Assembly: GCA_965219415.1 (NCBI GenBank)
Contig: OZ244742.1
Location: 960,001 to 1,024,000 of the forward strand
DNA length: 64,000 nucleotides
Source of the DNA: Candidatus Marinacidobacterales bacterium
Lineage (GTDB): Bacteria; Acidobacteriota; Vicinamibacteria; Marinacidobacterales; DATDRI01
Direction: 5' to 3'
Part shown: positions 24,504 through 30,814 of the stretch, one piece after another
Position numbering within the stretch: the stretch's first letter is position 1
Layout of the letters: the number at the start of each line of letters is the position of its first letter
Notes under the pieces: model-generated
Told to the model about the DNA's origin: nothing
The model's database searches: none
What the model saw: the letters and a program-made list of their open reading frames with translations, nothing else
Program-made: the position numbers and the translations under genes

Positions 24504-24588
24504 ACTTAGGAGCCGCTGGGACTAGCGACACCGGGTGCATCTGGCCAATCACCTTTGTAAACCTTGGGTTAGCAGTTATACTAATGGT

Positions 24589-24825
24589 ATGAAGACGGCG
24601 ATCTCGATTCCAGACAAGATTTTCAAGAAGGCGGACCGACTCGCCCGCCGACTGGGCATTTCTCGAAGTCAGCTTTACAGGGAAGCCGTCGAGGCTTACG
24701 TAAACCGACGCCGGCCGGAATCGATCACGGAAGCCATGAATCGGGTGGTGGACGAAGTTGGTCCCTCCGGGGACGATTTCGTCTCAGCTGCAGCTGGTAA
24801 TGTGTTGGAACGGGCGGAGTGGTAG
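24589..24825 (+). CDS. RHH antitoxin (ChpI/CopG-like), probably leaderless
   Basis: MKTAISIPDKIFKKADRLARRLGISRSQLY; TTGTAA-16-TATACT ends 6 nt before the ATG. Confidence 0.85.
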   Translation: MKTAISIPDKIFKKADRLARRLGISRSQLYREAVEAYVNRRRPESITEAMNRVVDEVGPSGDDFVSAAAGNVLERAEW

Positions 24826-25163
24826 TTCGCCAAGGCGACGTGTGGTGGGCCGACCTCCCCGCGCCGGCCGGTTCCAGACCAGGGTTCCGACGTCCAGTCT
24901 TAGTTGTTCAGGGCGACCCGCTGAACCGCAGCCGACTGGCAACCGTGGTGTGTGTGCCACTCACCAGCAATCTCAAATGGCAGGATGCCCCTGGCAACGT
25001 ACTCCTTGGGCAACGTGCATCAGGACTCCCGAAAGATTCTGTAGCGAACGTCTCGCAGATCATCGCCGTCGACCGCGCTTTCTTCACGGACCAAGTGGGG
25101 CGAATACCGAGTCGCTTACTCGCACAAGTCGTGGAGGGTATCGACGTTATCCTGGATCGGTGA
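24819..25163 (+). CDS. mazF: PemK/MazF toxin
   Basis: QGDVWWADL..RRPVLVVQ..VPLTSN..DSVANVSQI. Confidence 0.92.
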   Translation: MVVRQGDVWWADLPAPAGSRPGFRRPVLVVQGDPLNRSRLATVVCVPLTSNLKWQDAPGNVLLGQRASGLPKDSVANVSQIIAVDRAFFTDQVGRIPSRLLAQVVEGIDVILDR

Positions 25164-26751: not shown

Positions 26752-28530
26752 TTAGGAAACGAGGTTTTTGTGCTGATAGAGACGGCGGTCGTAGAATCCG
26801 AGGCGGCGGTAGTACTCCCTGGTGCCCACGCTCGAGATGACGGCCAATCTCGCAAAGCCAGCCTGGCGAGCCAACTCTTCGGCTCGGCCGATAAGACTTC
26901 GACCCAAACCGAGGTGCTGAGTCTTGAGCTCGTCCTTCTCGCCAAGGCGGGCGGTCGCACCGTAGACGTGCACTTCTCGGATCATGGCGCTTCCACGGAT
27001 CTCTTCGATGAATGCCTCACGCGTAGGCAGAGCGAGCCGTAGGAATCCGGCGATGCGGCGATCTTCATCGATGTACTGAAGAAAAATTTCTTCCCCGATG
27101 GAGCTCTCGTAGCGAACCTCGTCCAGCCGAAGCCTTTCGGCCGGGACACGCTCACCCCGGATCTCGCGACTCCGAATGTCTTCGCACTGGAATCCTCTTG
27201 CCGTCAACTCGGCTTCGGCGATGCCGCGGAAGTTCGACGTCTTGTTGCCATCCAAGATATCGTCGCCCGGGATGTCGCGGATCACGCGACTCACGCGGCA
27301 ATAACCTGGTACTCGCCGTAGACACTCGACCAGAACATGGAGAAGCTCGTCGTGAGTGTAGGGCTTCCACTTCCCCGCCTCGTAGGGAACCATCAACTCG
27401 GCGCTTTCGATCAAACTGCAGGGATAGATCTTGAGCTCGTCCGGTCGAAAGTCGAGGTCGCTAAAAAGACGGTCGAAGTCCTCGACGTCACCTTCCGGGG
27501 AGGAGCCGTAGAGGTTCGGCATCCAGTGAGCCTGGATTTTGAAACCGGCCTCCCGCAGCATTCGAACCGCTCTTCGGGTGGTCGCCACGTCGTGGCCTCG
27601 CTTGTTGAGCGACAGGACTTCGTCCGAAAGGCTCTGAATACCGATCTGCACTCTCGTCGCCCCGAGGCTTCGAATCCTCTCGACCTCCTCCTCGGAGACG
27701 TAGTCGGGCCGCGTCTCGACGGAAAGCCCAATGCATCGATGGCGGGCGGTCTCGTTCGCGCGCTGCACCTCCTCGAGTGCTTCAATTGTGGAGAACTCCG
27801 ATTCATGCACCAGCTCGCCGTTTTCCTTGGAGCGCAGGAATCCGGAAACGATGTCGTTATAAGGGTTGGACTCGAACCGACCGTCTACTTGCTCGCGGAG
27901 CTCTTCGTAGTGGACGCGATGTCGTACGGCGCCGTTCGAAGACTCCCCTGCACCGAAGTCGTTCATCGCTTCGAAACATCGACGAATGAACCAACGTTGG
28001 TAGCCTTCAGGATAGAAAGACCACGTCCCCCCCAGAATAATGAGCTCGATCTTCTCGAGACGGTGGCCCATCCGTCGTAGCGCTCCAAGCCGAGAGAGCG
28101 TCTGCTCATAGGGATCGAAGGCGTGCTGGGCGGCCCGCTGTGCACCCGGCTCCAAGGACAGATAGCTCTTGGGCATCCGCACATCGTTGGGACAGAAAAT
28201 GCATTGACCGGGGCAGGGAAACGGTTTGGTCAGGACCGTTACGGGGGTGACGCCGCTCAGCGTGCGCACCGGCTTCATCTTGAGTTTCTCGATGAACCGA
28301 TCGGCGTCGCTCGACCATCCCTCCTGCTCGGCCAAGTGACGATAGCCCTGGATGATCTCGCTCTTGGAGAAAAACTCCCTGCCGCCCTTGGGATATTTTC
28401 CGAGTATTCGGTCGAGCGTCTTCCCATGAACGTCGGGACAGTTCTCGATCTCTTGGATGATGGCTCGGAGCTCCGCCTCATGAAGCTCGGGCGCAAAATG
28501 ATACGGTGTCAACCACGTCGCTTTTTTCAT
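26752..28530 (-). CDS. elp3: Elp3-type radical SAM/KAT tRNA uridine(34) acetyltransferase
   Basis: KPVRTLSGV, CPGQCIFCP, GGTW, ETRPD, KIYP, RVIRDIP, IREVHVYG, QHLGLG, VGTREYYRRLG. Confidence 0.92.
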   Translation of the reverse strand: MKKATWLTPYHFAPELHEAELRAIIQEIENCPDVHGKTLDRILGKYPKGGREFFSKSEIIQGYRHLAEQEGWSSDADRFIEKLKMKPVRTLSGVTPVTVLTKPFPCPGQCIFCPNDVRMPKSYLSLEPGAQRAAQHAFDPYEQTLSRLGALRRMGHRLEKIELIILGGTWSFYPEGYQRWFIRRCFEAMNDFGAGESSNGAVRHRVHYEELREQVDGRFESNPYNDIVSGFLRSKENGELVHESEFSTIEALEEVQRANETARHRCIGLSVETRPDYVSEEEVERIRSLGATRVQIGIQSLSDEVLSLNKRGHDVATTRRAVRMLREAGFKIQAHWMPNLYGSSPEGDVEDFDRLFSDLDFRPDELKIYPCSLIESAELMVPYEAGKWKPYTHDELLHVLVECLRRVPGYCRVSRVIRDIPGDDILDGNKTSNFRGIAEAELTARGFQCEDIRSREIRGERVPAERLRLDEVRYESSIGEEIFLQYIDEDRRIAGFLRLALPTREAFIEEIRGSAMIREVHVYGATARLGEKDELKTQHLGLGRSLIGRAEELARQAGFARLAVISSVGTREYYRRLGFYDRRLYQHKNLVS

Positions 28531-28541
28531 ACACTCAGCCG

Positions 28542-29285
28542 ATGGATCGGGCCACTATTTTAGCACTCAACCAGACCAACCGAGATTTCTACACCCAGCG
28601 GGCCGACGAATTTAGCGCCACGCGACGGAGGCCCTGGCGGGGATGGCTCCGGCTGCTGCCATTCATTGGGGAAAGGCGGGCGCTCTCGGTCCTCGATGTC
28701 GGCTGCGGCAACGGGCGATTCGCCGTCTTTCTCAGCGAGCATCTAGAATCGCCGTTTAGCTACGTGGGAGTCGAATTCAGTCCGACGGTGCTCGAGCACG
28801 CTCGCTCGAAGCTGTCCGACCTTCCTTTCATTACGCTGAAAGAGCACGACGTGATGGCAGGAATCAACGAACTAACCGGCCCGTTTTCGCTGATCACGCT
28901 CTTCGGCTTTCTCCATCACGCGCCCGGCTTTGACACTCGACGCTCGTTGCTCATCGAGCTCGGCCGTCTACTGGAACCCGACGGGATCCTCGCCTTCTCG
29001 GTTTGGCAATTCGGCCGCTTCGAGAGATTTCGAAAGAAGCTCATTCCTTGGGATACGTTCCTCGCCTCGACTGGGGTCGAGATCGACCCATCCCAGCTCG
29101 AGCCGGGCGATCACATTCTGTCTTGGGGAGATACGGAGCCGGCTTATCGCTATTGCCATTTCACCGACAGCGACGAAACGTCGCGGCTGGTGTCCTCCCA
29201 GCCGCTGGAGTGTTTCGAGGTCTTTACCGCGGACGGGCGCACGAATGATCTCAATCAGTACTTCCTTTTGAAGCGCCCAGGCTAG
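28542..29285 (+). CDS. Class I SAM methyltransferase, Trm9/ALKBH8-like
   Basis: FY..ADEFSATRRRPW, LDVGCGNGR, LHH, SVW, RYCH. Confidence 0.8.
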   Translation: MDRATILALNQTNRDFYTQRADEFSATRRRPWRGWLRLLPFIGERRALSVLDVGCGNGRFAVFLSEHLESPFSYVGVEFSPTVLEHARSKLSDLPFITLKEHDVMAGINELTGPFSLITLFGFLHHAPGFDTRRSLLIELGRLLEPDGILAFSVWQFGRFERFRKKLIPWDTFLASTGVEIDPSQLEPGDHILSWGDTEPAYRYCHFTDSDETSRLVSSQPLECFEVFTADGRTNDLNQYFLLKRPG

Positions 29286-30814
29286 CCTCGTGAATCGCCC
29301 GCACCGCGTCCAACGTGTCCGCTTCTTGCGGTGACTTGTCGGGGCGGTAGCCCTTGACGCGCGCGAAACGAAGCGCGAGGCCAGCGGGATACTGACGGCT
29401 TGCCTGGATATCGTTGAACTCGATTTCCACCACCAGTTCCGGTCGGACGTAGACCGTGAAGTGGTCGCGTGATGTTTCTAACTCCTGCCGTTTCGTTTGC
29501 CATTCCAGTATCTCGTCCGTCATTCCCTTGAAGGTTTTGCCTAACATCACCGGTTCGCCCGTCGCCGGGTCAGGTGCTCCGAGGTGCAAGTTGCTGAGCC
29601 ATCCGCGGCGGCGACCGCTCCCCCACTCCGCGGCCATGACGATGAGATCGAGCGTGTGCGCCCGCTTTACTTTTAGCCAGCTTCGACCGCGCCCGCCCGC
29701 CTCATACGGTGCGTCCAACGCTTTCGCCATTACCCCTTCGTGTCCCGCGTCGAGGGCCTGACGTTCGAAGGCAACGGCCTCGTCCCGCTCGGCCGTCACT
29801 ATTCGAGGAACCAAATGCCCCGCGGGAACCGCGTTCGAGAGGGCCACGTAACGCTCCTCGGCCGAGCGGTCGACCCAGCTCGCTCCATCTAGATATAGAC
29901 AATCGAAGAAAAATGTCGTGAGGGGCAGTTCTTCGCGCATCGCCGCGACGTCGAGTCGGCGCCCAAACCTGCGCATCGTAGTTTGAAACGGCAGCGGTGA
30001 ACCATCCGAGCGTAGCGCCAGCGTCTCCCCGTCCAAAATGATCTCCTCCGCCGACAACGCGCGCAGCATCTCTACAATCTCGGGCACTGCATCCGTGACG
30101 TCGTTCAAACGGCGTGTGAAGATCCGAACGTCTTCTCCTCGCTTGTGAGCCTGAACGCGCGCGCCGTCCAACTTGAACTCGAATGCCGCGGTTGCCAAAT
30201 GCTCGAGCGCCTCCGATACGGATTCGGCGGTCTGCGCCAGCATGGGTTTGATGGGGCGGAAGAGCTGGATGCCGATGCGCTCCAAACCCGCTGCTCCCCC
30301 GGTGAGAGCGGTTCGGGCGACCGCTCCGAGATCACCGGAGAACATGACCGCCCGGCGTACGGTTCGCGCCGGAACTTCAGAAGCCTTGGCCACCGCCTCC
30401 ACCATCACACCCTCCAAAGCGCCCTGGCGGAGCTCGCCCATGATCAGCCGCGTAAAGGAACGTCTGCTCGTCCTTGGTCCCGCGCGCAAGCAAACGATGG
30501 AGAATCAGGCCCCGGCCCGCGGAGGAGCCGCGGCCGGTCGTGCCGGCGATGGCATCGAAGGAACGGTCGACGTCGAGAAGGTTTAGTCTTGGACTATCGG
30601 CGGCGGTCTTCGGAGTTGCATTCCGTACTCCGGACCAACCGACGCCGATCCGCCCCTGGGGAAGCTCTCCCGTGAGAAAGAGAACCCCAACGGCGATCTC
30701 GTTCTCGGCAAGGCGTTTCAGGAGCTCCGCCAGGAGCCCGATCTTTTCGAGCCGGCCGCTCGTCTCCGAGACCCGCCTAGAAGTCTCAACCAAATCGCCT
30801 AGTTGCACCGTCAT
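29251..30814 (-). CDS. ATP-dependent DNA ligase (LigB-type); 1-nt frameshift near 30455, possibly a sequencing error
   Basis: EFKLDG, EGVMAK, WLKVK, LRFARV. Confidence 0.88.

Follow-up and report, generated by a model that had tools for sequence, protein, structure and literature searches.

Two divergently oriented genes in the window, the whole stretch of 64,000 nucleotides analysed here, probably constitute a bacterial module that converts cm5U to mcm5U(s2) at the tRNA wobble position and takes the place of MnmEG, a reading to which we assign a probability of about 0.7. One gene encodes an Elp3 and the other a Trm9-like methyltransferase. According to textbooks, bacteria use MnmEG to make xm5U34, and cm5U and mcm5U are kept for archaea and eukaryotes. 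Of this group of modifications, only cmnm5U, mnm5U and nm5U are assigned to Bacteria in the available part of a 2020 compendium (PMC7694415). The accessible text of a 2017 review states that bacteria have no genes resembling those for the Trm112-dependent methyltransferases (PMC5372719), and in that of a 2020 review bacterial Elp3 forms a single clade and direct evidence for bacterial xcm5U is said to be lacking (PMC7663514). A literature search, with supplementary files outside its reach, found no published description of a bacterial Elp3/Trm9-like pair.

If the reading is true, large and environmentally abundant bacterial groups would possess a second complete wobble-uridine pathway, mutually exclusive with MnmG. 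Bacterial Trm9-like enzymes would then offer single-gene models for Trm9/ALKBH8 chemistry.

Gene layout and identity of Elp3

The earlier note had placed the two open reading frames head to head, at 26752–28530 (minus strand, 592 aa) and, from a GTG, at 28506–29285 (plus strand, 259 aa). Both frames are found at these sites and the layout stands, with one correction to the start: MDRAT is where homologues begin, and database records already contain an identical protein of 247 aa, so the ATG at 28542 is the likelier start (28542–29285, plus strand, 247 aa), the GTG at 28506 being retained as an alternative. With the ATG, the two start codons do not overlap but lie 11 nt apart (spacer 28531–28541, from reading of the sequence). 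A promoter scan found no sigma-70-like site in 28300–28800, and each gene's promoter would therefore fall inside the other gene; the same interval contains one terminator-like hairpin, a number at chance level.

The 592-aa product of the minus-strand gene can be firmly identified, from its sequence, as a long-form bacterial Elp3 with radical-SAM and GNAT (KAT) domains. It scores 502.6 bits against TIGR01211 (cut-off 350), and its relatives in the PDB are archaeal MinElp3 (6iaz, E = 1.8e-106), bacterial DmcElp3 (5l7j, E = 1.4e-99) and eukaryotic Elp3 structures (E = 3e-87 to 5.5e-80). The radical-SAM cysteine motif CPGQCIFC (residues 106–113; 28192–28215, minus strand) aligns with that of MinElp3, its Cys triad intact and its spacing one residue shorter, and the acetyl-CoA-binding motif of the KAT domain, QHLGLG (residues 538–543; 26902–26919, minus strand), aligns with QHMGYG of MinElp3. 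The TIGR01211 score and these two motifs bear out the description of the gene as a full radical-SAM/KAT Elp3; Pfam GNAT matches fall narrowly below their cut-offs (20.4 against 23.6, and 20.5 against 20.7). The protein is predicted to form cm5U34 on tRNA.

Two features set the long form apart in an alignment of eight long and five short Elp3 sequences. The TIGR01211 match begins only at residue 75, and the N-terminal extension of some 78–85 aa that precedes the conserved part (about residues 1–78; 28297–28530, minus strand) is kept in long-form bacterial Elp3 and absent in the short, Dehalococcoidia-like form. In addition, the radical-SAM domain contains an insertion of about 58 residues (residues 192–249; 27784–27957, minus strand) that varies in length among long-form Elp3 and is found neither in MinElp3 nor in the short form; the alignment to 6iaz consists of two stretches, 79–191 and 250–588.

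Motifs and fold of the methyltransferase

All the methyltransferase motifs that had been claimed were found in the plus-strand translation, numbered here from the ATG. The N-terminal motif FSATRRRPW (residues 24–32; 28611–28637) brings R28 into alignment with ScTrm9 R29, and SAM-binding motif I, DVGCGNG (residues 52–58; 28695–28715), aligns D52 with D72. LHH (residues 124–126; 28911–28919) places H125 and H126 opposite H115 and H116, SVWQF (residues 153–157; 28998–29012) places W155 opposite W145, and ILSW (residues 192–195; 29115–29126) places W195 opposite W168. Finally, RYCH (residues 203–206; 29148–29159) aligns R203 with R241 and has C205 at the position of Y243.

ScTrm9 R29 has been proposed to bind the cm5U carboxylate. 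The available part of a yeast study lists eight ScTrm9 residues at which substitution by Ala renders yeast resistant to zymocin (PMC4678810, Table 2), and six of the eight so listed are kept here in an alignment that passes through ALKBH8 to YlTrm9: R28, D52, H126, W155, W195 and R203. Among 34 aligned sequences of the family, R28, D52, H125 and W155 are invariant, and H126 and W195 are each present in at least 90%. ScTrm9 N271 lies beyond the end of the hhalign alignment, with the invariant N238 (in DLNxY) as a candidate equivalent. Equivalents of H24, K31 and Q149 are not kept, and the yeast Ala mutants of these three are likewise without phenotype in the part of the study at hand (PMC4678810). 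The Tyr of the RYYH motif, Y243 in ScTrm9, is replaced by C205 in 34 of 34 sequences, and we therefore file the protein as a member of a Trm9-like sister family, the RYCH subfamily, rather than as a Trm9 orthologue. Tyr is not indispensable, since Y243A retains about a tenth of the activity (specific activity 206 versus 2105 for the wild type; Table 2 in the accessible part of PMC4678810).

The earlier note had likened the enzyme to Trm9/ALKBH8, and profile and structure comparisons upheld this for motifs and functional residues but not for overall score or fold rank, which do not discriminate. The AF2 model (pLDDT 93.6) has a class I SAM fold. The Pfam matches of the protein are confined to generic methyltransferase families, and no NCBIfam cut-off is exceeded. 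Trm9 is not among the best 60 of 100 PDB hits in a single-sequence search; in a profile search of the PDB, 5cm2_Z comes 13th (37.2 bits, versus 41.9 for phosphoethanolamine methyltransferase). Foldseek ranks 5cm2_Z sixth, its target-normalised TM (0.74) topping those of the other rows listed. VIA ranks it 30th (Z 17.5; METTL6 is first with Z 20.7), where no other of the 50 rows reaches its identity (22%) or has a smaller rmsd (2.5 Å, a tied value), and ESM Atlas returned only unnamed bacterial methyltransferase clusters. Whole-protein searches by PDB, Foldseek and VIA thus bring up the general run of class I methyltransferases, without either favouring Trm9 or ruling it out. The name 'TRM9' is attached by JGI to four of 120 homologues among the matches listed.

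The family profile aligns with the methyltransferase domain of a mite ALKBH8 by hhalign (probability 99, E = 7.9e-18, 211 columns), and this domain in turn matches YlTrm9 5cm2_Z (E = 4e-36). ALKBH8 is also the best match among named eukaryotic proteins of more than 474 aa (63 bits, 84% coverage). When the profile was divided and compared with 72 multidomain methyltransferase proteins, its N-terminal part matched only fusions of the family itself and three ALKBH8 (11.5–13.1 bits; best generic protein, 6.0), its C-terminal part matched one ALKBH8 (E = 7e-4), and its Rossmann core gave ALKBH8 scores among the lowest of the 72; this ALKBH8 sample is narrow, as it consists of three mite sequences picked by shared words.

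Linkage and co-occurrence

Conservation of the pairing across several phyla is strongly positive, and this genomic linkage is the strongest evidence for the proposed module. Elp3 lies within 6 kb of related methyltransferases in 46 of 80 loci; 45 of these 46 are divergent, and in 35 the matches are separated by no more than about 330 bp. Divergent adjacency occurs in MAGs titled Acidobacteriota, Myxococcota/'Deltaproteobacteria', Chloroflexota, Spirochaetales and Gammaproteobacteria. Where Elp3 is not a neighbour, it is encoded elsewhere in the genome in nine of ten genomes tested. In a sample of 251 genomes from the same phylum, the same nine carry both Elp3 and the methyltransferase (they span six genera, related genomes not being independent), and neither gene is found in any of the other 242. 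Among 201 Chloroflexota genomes, the RYCH family is present in 22/22 with long-form Elp3, and a full-length match to it in 0/163 Elp3-negative genomes. The pairing is far beyond chance.

The idea that short-form Elp3 has no methyltransferase partner was rejected: a threshold of 1e-15 had been too strict to pick up another subfamily, which is more diverged. This second kind of Trm9-like methyltransferase is shorter (215–241 aa, with RYYH, compared with about 250 aa and RYCH for the partner of the long form) and divergently adjoins short-form Elp3 in 11 of 12 fetched loci. The two subfamilies match each other at only 31–53 bits.

MnmE, MnmG and MnmA

A check of this genome for mnmE and mnmG, as the earlier note had proposed, detected neither: the best MnmG match reaches 71.5 bits (cut-off 525), and the best MnmE match (115 bits) covers the GTPase part only. 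MnmA (343 bits) and U34 tRNA genes are present. Scoring MnmG as present at E ≤ 1e-60, we found it in 0/9 pair carriers and 203/242 other genomes of the same-phylum sample, and in 0/38 Elp3-bearing versus 95/163 Elp3-negative Chloroflexota (a sample without completeness figures), which makes 0/47 sampled Elp3-bearing genomes overall; it was likewise not found in five further methyltransferase-bearing genomes. Absence is not specific to Elp3 carriers, MnmG being missing also in 39/242 and 68/163 Elp3-negative genomes.

A Trm112-like protein

The enzyme had been suggested to work without Trm112 as no partner was seen in the window. The window indeed contains no Trm112-type ORF, but the genome does encode a Trm112-like protein, its single match lying on another contig. 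Such an ORF occurs in 10/10 other pair carriers tested and, in Chloroflexota, in 20/22 carriers versus 92/179 other genomes, never adjacent to the methyltransferase. Complex prediction for the methyltransferase and the Trm112-like protein gave a score of 0.00 in both runs, which had no controls and are uninformative on binding. In Chloroflexota, a Trm112 subfamily marked by an EGDKW...PVPPP tail reaches 81 bits or more in 20/22 carriers, and just 3/179 other genomes give 97 bits or more. We did not accept it as a dedicated partner, because the training sequences came from 12 of these 22 carriers and relatedness among the genomes confounds the count.

Proposed pathway and alternative readings

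In the proposed pathway, Elp3 would use its radical-SAM reaction and acetyl-CoA to carboxymethylate U34 at C5, giving cm5U, with Lys-UUU, Glu-UUC, Gln-UUG, Arg-UCU, Gly-UCC and Leu-UAA as likely tRNA substrates. The Trm9-like methyltransferase would then use SAM to form the methyl ester of the cm5U carboxylate (mcm5U), and the genome's own MnmA may supply 2-thiolation where this is required (mcm5s2U), so that the module would stand in for the MnmE/MnmG pathway. Synteny, co-occurrence, the absence of MnmG and MnmE, and the shared motifs all support the two-gene cm5U-to-mcm5U module that had been surmised from the window. A more far-reaching version, in which long-form Elp3 and the Cys-bearing enzyme have wholly replaced MnmE/MnmG in at least five bacterial lineages, making mcm5s2U with MnmA and with a Trm112/YcaR-type partner, is tentative and, as a whole, rather unlikely. 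In that version the pathway would be a hybrid, joining a eukaryote-type mcm5 side chain to bacterial MnmA thiolation, and the methyltransferase would be the first bacterial client of the orphan Trm112/YcaR-type protein.

Among competing explanations, the first keeps the Elp3-dependent side chain of U34 as the target of the methyltransferase, but supposes that the enzyme takes a different intermediate or yields a product other than mcm5U, the Cys reflecting this altered chemistry. The invariance of C205 would fit, given that Trm9, ALKBH8 and the short Dehalococcoidia-type neighbour all keep Tyr (RYYH), as would the exclusive association of the RYCH family with the extended, insertion-bearing Elp3. 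In H. volcanii, moreover, loss of Trm9 diverts cm5U to unidentified products, as described in the available part of PMC6144793, and side-chain chemistry is therefore not uniform. However, six other functional residues surrounding the methyl group of SAM are conserved, among them R28 and H126, the pair suggested to bind the carboxylate, and the residual activity of ScTrm9 Y243A also speaks against it; we consider this explanation improbable, if the most plausible of the alternatives.

It is less probable still that the two proteins are coupled outside tRNA U34, for example with Elp3 acetylating some other substrate and the methyltransferase modifying either that substrate or a small molecule. 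The top-scoring PDB matches of the methyltransferase are small-molecule and peptide methyltransferases, and a protein more remotely related to the family occurs fused to WecG/TagA-type glycosyltransferases (P0122–P0125). Yet the exclusion of MnmG points to U34, the motifs of the Trm9 substrate site are shared, and one family member (P0121) is fused to a SpoU-type RNA 2'-O-methyltransferase domain. A last explanation, that elp3 merely has beside it an enzyme of no related function, with a housekeeping or small-molecule role, is disfavoured and very improbable: the purely generic Pfam matches and the lack of any hit above an NCBIfam cut-off would be expected of such a neighbour, but divergent adjacency is kept across all the groups of MAGs named above, and presence and absence of the two genes correspond exactly in both phylum samples (9/9 and 0/242 in the one, 22/22 and 0/163 in the other).

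Comparison with known systems

The activity of 5CM2-type enzymes is that of a tRNA (carboxymethyluridine(34)-5-O)-methyltransferase. The window methyltransferase shares with the eukaryotic Trm9-Trm112 enzyme and the ALKBH8 domain (5CM2) the class I fold, the series F-S-x-T-R, DVGCGNG, HH, W, W and R-Y-x-H, six of eight essential residues and, through its genomic position, a tie to Elp3, the maker of the Trm9 substrate. It differs in standing alone as a bacterial protein some 250 aa long, in its low identity to ALKBH8 (about 26% over 211 columns) and in the invariant Cys that replaces the RYYH Tyr in the RYCH family.

Archaea provide a further parallel, with a single-subunit Elp3 lacking Elp1, 2 and 4–6, accompanied by a Trm9-type enzyme and encoded in a cluster (accessible parts of PMC6144793 and PMC5372719); the likeness to archaeal Trm9 is drawn from published descriptions rather than sequences. 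In the available part of PMC6144793, the Elp3 and Trm9 genes of Sulfolobus cluster and HvoTrm9-Trm112 of H. volcanii makes mcm5U. In contrast to the archaeal pair, the host here is a bacterium, and thiolation would be of the bacterial MnmA rather than the Ncs6/Tuc1 type. Dehalococcoides mccartyi DmcElp3 (5L7J) is likewise a bacterial Elp3, and short-form loci also have a divergent Trm9-like neighbour (11/12). The window Elp3, however, is of the long form, with its N-terminal extension and insertion, and its partner comes from the RYCH and not the RYYH subfamily. Finally, the proposed module would resemble the MnmE/MnmG (with MnmC) xm5U34 pathway in acting at the same position of the same set of tRNAs and in combining with 2-thiolation by MnmA, whereas the enzymes are unrelated and MnmE/MnmG chemistry yields cmnm5 or nm5 from glycine or ammonium.

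A divergent elp3-methyltransferase gene pair

The head-to-head arrangement of a complete elp3 gene and a methyltransferase gene, reported in the earlier note, is real, as seen from the ORF listing, the TIGR01211 match and linkage across genomes. The Elp3 ORF (26752-28530, minus strand) encodes 592 aa and scores 502.6 bits against TIGR01211 (cut-off 350); its PDB matches include archaeal MinElp3 (6iaz, E 1.8e-106), bacterial DmcElp3 (5l7j, E 1.4e-99) and eukaryotic Elp3 chains. Both the cysteine motif (CPGQCIFC, residues 106-113) and the acetyl-CoA motif (QHLGLG, residues 538-543) are present when the protein is aligned to 6iaz, relative to which it has ~78 additional N-terminal residues and an insertion of ~58 residues (192-249). 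Such an N-terminal extension and variable insertion mark a long form of bacterial Elp3 (alignment of eight 'long' and five 'short' sequences), which is common to loci whose MAGs bear the titles Acidobacteriota, Myxococcales, Chloroflexia/Aggregatilineales, Spirochaetales and Pseudomonadales; these features are not present in the short, Dehalococcoidia-like Elp3.

The methyltransferase ORF ends at 29285 on the plus strand, and its start is most likely the ATG at 28542 and not the GTG at 28506, because an identical 247-aa database protein and its homologues all begin MDRAT. With this ATG, 11 nt separate the two start codons. A promoter scan found no sigma-70-like promoter within 250 bp on either side, so each gene's promoter would need to lie within the other gene. 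The GC content around the pair (0.59-0.60) is the same as in the remainder of the window.

An ORF on the minus strand (29251-30489), convergent with the methyltransferase gene, overlaps the last 35 nt of the latter; its translation contains a KLDGAR motif, which we take to be typical of ATP-dependent DNA ligases. Upstream of the pair lie two mutually overlapping small plus-strand ORFs (24535-24825 and 24819-25163), presumably resembling, to judge by their translations, a ribbon-helix-helix antitoxin and, after it, a MazF/PemK-type toxin (VVRQGDVWWADL...). A conserved minus-strand ORF of 126-155 aa lies between Elp3 and the methyltransferase in six Anaerolineae-type loci (L049 5514-5924, L059 5506-5919, L062 5556-5936, L064 2111-2572, L068 5483-5950 and L074 5147-5551), with the N-terminus M(I/V)xIKRIxVGSAF and a hydrophobic stretch; this ORF is absent from the window.

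Linkage of the methyltransferase to Elp3

A genome-collection scan gave at least 530 confirmed relatives of the methyltransferase among at least 590 matched stretches, and the best 80 loci were kept. Elp3 lay inside the fetched flanks of 46 of these 80, divergent from the methyltransferase in 45 of the 46, and the matches were no more than ~330 bp apart in 35. Upstream DNA was shorter than 2 kb in 10 of the 34 loci without Elp3; a genome-wide check of 10 from the other 24 located Elp3 elsewhere in nine, in two of these only 9-11 kb away.

Among 251 genomes of the window's phylum, the window's genome included, Elp3 exceeded its cut-off in nine, and the methyltransferase profile (E<=1e-15) matched exactly the same nine and 0/242 others. 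In all nine, which represent just six genera, 0.2-3.8 kb separate Elp3 from the methyltransferase; the pair was found in 0/19 same-class genomes of this sample. In the second phylum sampled, the Chloroflexota, to which the Aggregatilineales MAG G255 belongs, Elp3 occurs in 38 of 201 genomes, 22 with the long and 16 with the short form, and full-length methyltransferase-family matches coincide exactly with the 22 long-form genomes, 18 of whose pairs are divergent and no more than 1.9 kb apart. Elp3-negative Chloroflexota genomes gave four weak matches (~60 bits), confined to the core, which represent generic methyltransferases. The denominators include genomes flagged unpublished (G024, G049 and G152 for one phylum; G298 and G405 for the second), and no carrier of Elp3 and the methyltransferase is among them.

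Short-form Elp3 has a neighbour of its own: a methyltransferase of 215-241 aa adjoins it divergently in 11 of 12 loci fetched (of 16), matching the 34-sequence profile of the window's family at only 31-53 bits and bearing the motifs FRH, GCGHG, HH, TVWN, VPW and RYYHLF. Bacteria therefore have at least two Trm9-like subfamilies, each linked to its own Elp3 form. A ten-sequence profile of the short-form-linked proteins matched ALKBH8 over its full length at 44-60 bits and the window's family at 12-43 bits, with some generic fusions scoring equally high or higher.

Likeness to Trm9 and ALKBH8

Whole-protein comparisons do not discriminate Trm9 from other methyltransferases. Pfam matches of METHYLTRANSFERASE were to generic class I families only, and no NCBIfam model passed its cut-off. 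The family is a large one: 1550 candidates yielded 814 members at E<=0.001. Of 120 homologues listed, JGI names four 'TRM9' and most others 'SAM-dependent methyltransferase'. A single-sequence PDB search did not return Trm9 among the 60 listed of 100 matches, and a profile search placed the YlTrm9 chain 5cm2_Z at rank 13 (37.2 bits; top match a phosphoethanolamine methyltransferase, 41.9). With a confident AF2 model (pLDDT 93.6, pTM 0.91), Foldseek placed 5cm2_Z at rank 6 (E 2.9e-12), its target-normalised TM of 0.74 being the highest among the matches listed; VIA placed it at rank 30 (Z 17.5 versus 20.7 for METTL6; rmsd 2.5 Å), with the highest identity (22%), and 3E23 at rank 5 (Z 19.7). The Trm9 structure paper (PMC4678810) names 3E23 as the closest structural homologue of YlTrm9.

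Motif-level comparison is more telling. In a search among longer proteins, chosen by shared words from 8000 candidates, the best-scoring named eukaryotic matches of the methyltransferase were three mite ALKBH8 proteins, one at 63 bits with 84% query coverage and the others at 58 and 52 bits. One of them, P0128, aligned with the family profile over 211 columns (hhalign probability 99, E 7.9e-18) and with YlTrm9 at E 4e-36, so that residues could be mapped from the family through ALKBH8 and YlTrm9 to Table 2 of PMC4678810, the part of that paper giving yeast and Yarrowia numbering and mutant phenotypes. Eight ScTrm9 residues whose Ala mutants give zymocin resistance were compared. Six are conserved in the family: R29 as R28, D72 as D52, H116 as H126, W145 as W155, W168 as W195 and R241 as R203. 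In place of Y243 the family has an invariant Cys (C205), and N271 lies beyond the aligned region. The family alignment has 35 invariant columns.

Parts of the family profile were also run against 72 multidomain methyltransferase proteins. Matches to the N-terminal 45 residues were confined to the three ALKBH8 proteins, one fusion from the family and four fusions of more distant relatives (11.5-13.1 bits, against 6.0 for the protein ranked next), and the C-terminal part matched one ALKBH8 (E 7e-4). Judged by these profiles, the Trm9 likeness resides in the substrate-site motifs and not in the core, because the terminal parts match ALKBH8, and with the Rossmann core its scores are some of the lowest in the set of 72.

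Fusions occur both in and near the family. P0121, a true member, is joined to a SpoU-type RNA 2'-O-methyltransferase domain (best NCBIfam match RlmB, 41.9 bits, below cut-off), and four more distant RYCH-motif relatives (P0122-P0125) are joined to glycosyltransferase domains of the WecG/TagA type (P0122 scores 127.9 bits on TIGR00696).

MnmEG, U34 tRNAs and Trm112

In the window's genome (estimated 96% complete, 8.5% contamination), neither MnmG (best match 71.5 bits over positions 300-402; cut-off 525) nor MnmE (best match 115 bits, GTPase part only) was found; MnmA is present (343 bits). Among its 49 tRNA genes (aragorn) are U34 tRNAs specific for Lys, Glu, Gln, Arg(UCU), Gly(UCC), Leu(UAA) and Sec. 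For Val, aragorn listed the anticodon AAC in addition to CAC, GAC and UAC; in bacteria A34 is unusual outside tRNA-Arg(ACG), and the gene might be a contaminant, the genome's estimated contamination being 8.45%.

At a threshold of E<=1e-60, MnmG occurs in 203 genomes of the 251-genome sample yet in 0/9 carriers, and in 95 of 201 Chloroflexota yet in 0/38 genomes with Elp3. It was likewise found in 0/5 further carriers (MAGs titled Gammaproteobacteria/Pseudomonadales, Spirochaetales and Deltaproteobacteria), whose completeness is not established and two of which are just 0.9-1.2 Mb. The exclusion is one-directional only, because MnmG is also missing from 39/242 and 68/163 Elp3-negative genomes of the two phyla, respectively, an absence that may be due in part to incompleteness. 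One family in the 251-genome sample has MnmG in 0/12.

The earlier note's statement that the window holds no Trm112 was borne out; the genome's sole Trm112-like ORF (62 aa from its ATG; PF03966, 53.4 bits) sits on another contig, adjoining a glycosyltransferase-like gene. Such an ORF occurs in 10/10 other carriers tested, never adjoining the pair. PF03966 matched in 20/22 Chloroflexota carriers versus 92/179 other genomes, and a subfamily-specific profile in 20/22 versus 3/179, a count that is partly circular and confounded by kinship; the 3/179 are the non-carriers with matches over the full length at 97 bits or more. The Chloroflexota carriers' protein (loci L108 and L110-L120) has ~72 aa and a conserved tail, EGDKWxxTAxxALPVPPP.

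Discussion

Most likely, the methyltransferase acts like Trm9: it would methylate the product of long-form Elp3, in a pathway standing in for MnmEG. The earlier proposal of a bacterial cm5U-to-mcm5U module has come through those of its suggested tests that were run. From its residues, we file the methyltransferase as a putative Trm9-like sister family, because one defining Trm9 residue is replaced (Y243 by C205).

Among the sources searched, largely outside subscription journals and accessible in part, we found no description of a bacterial Trm9-like partner of Elp3. PMC5372719 (2017) describes bacteria as without genes resembling Trm112-dependent methyltransferases, PMC7663514 (2020) places Elp3 in one bacterial clade and states that xcm5U lacks direct evidence in bacteria, PMC7694415 (2020) assigns Bacteria only cmnm5U, mnm5U and nm5U of this group, and PMC13315578 (2026) refers to 'numerous bacteria' with Elp3. 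For archaea, PMC6144793 describes mcm5U as made by HvoTrm9-Trm112, and the Elp3 and Trm9 genes of Sulfolobus as clustered.
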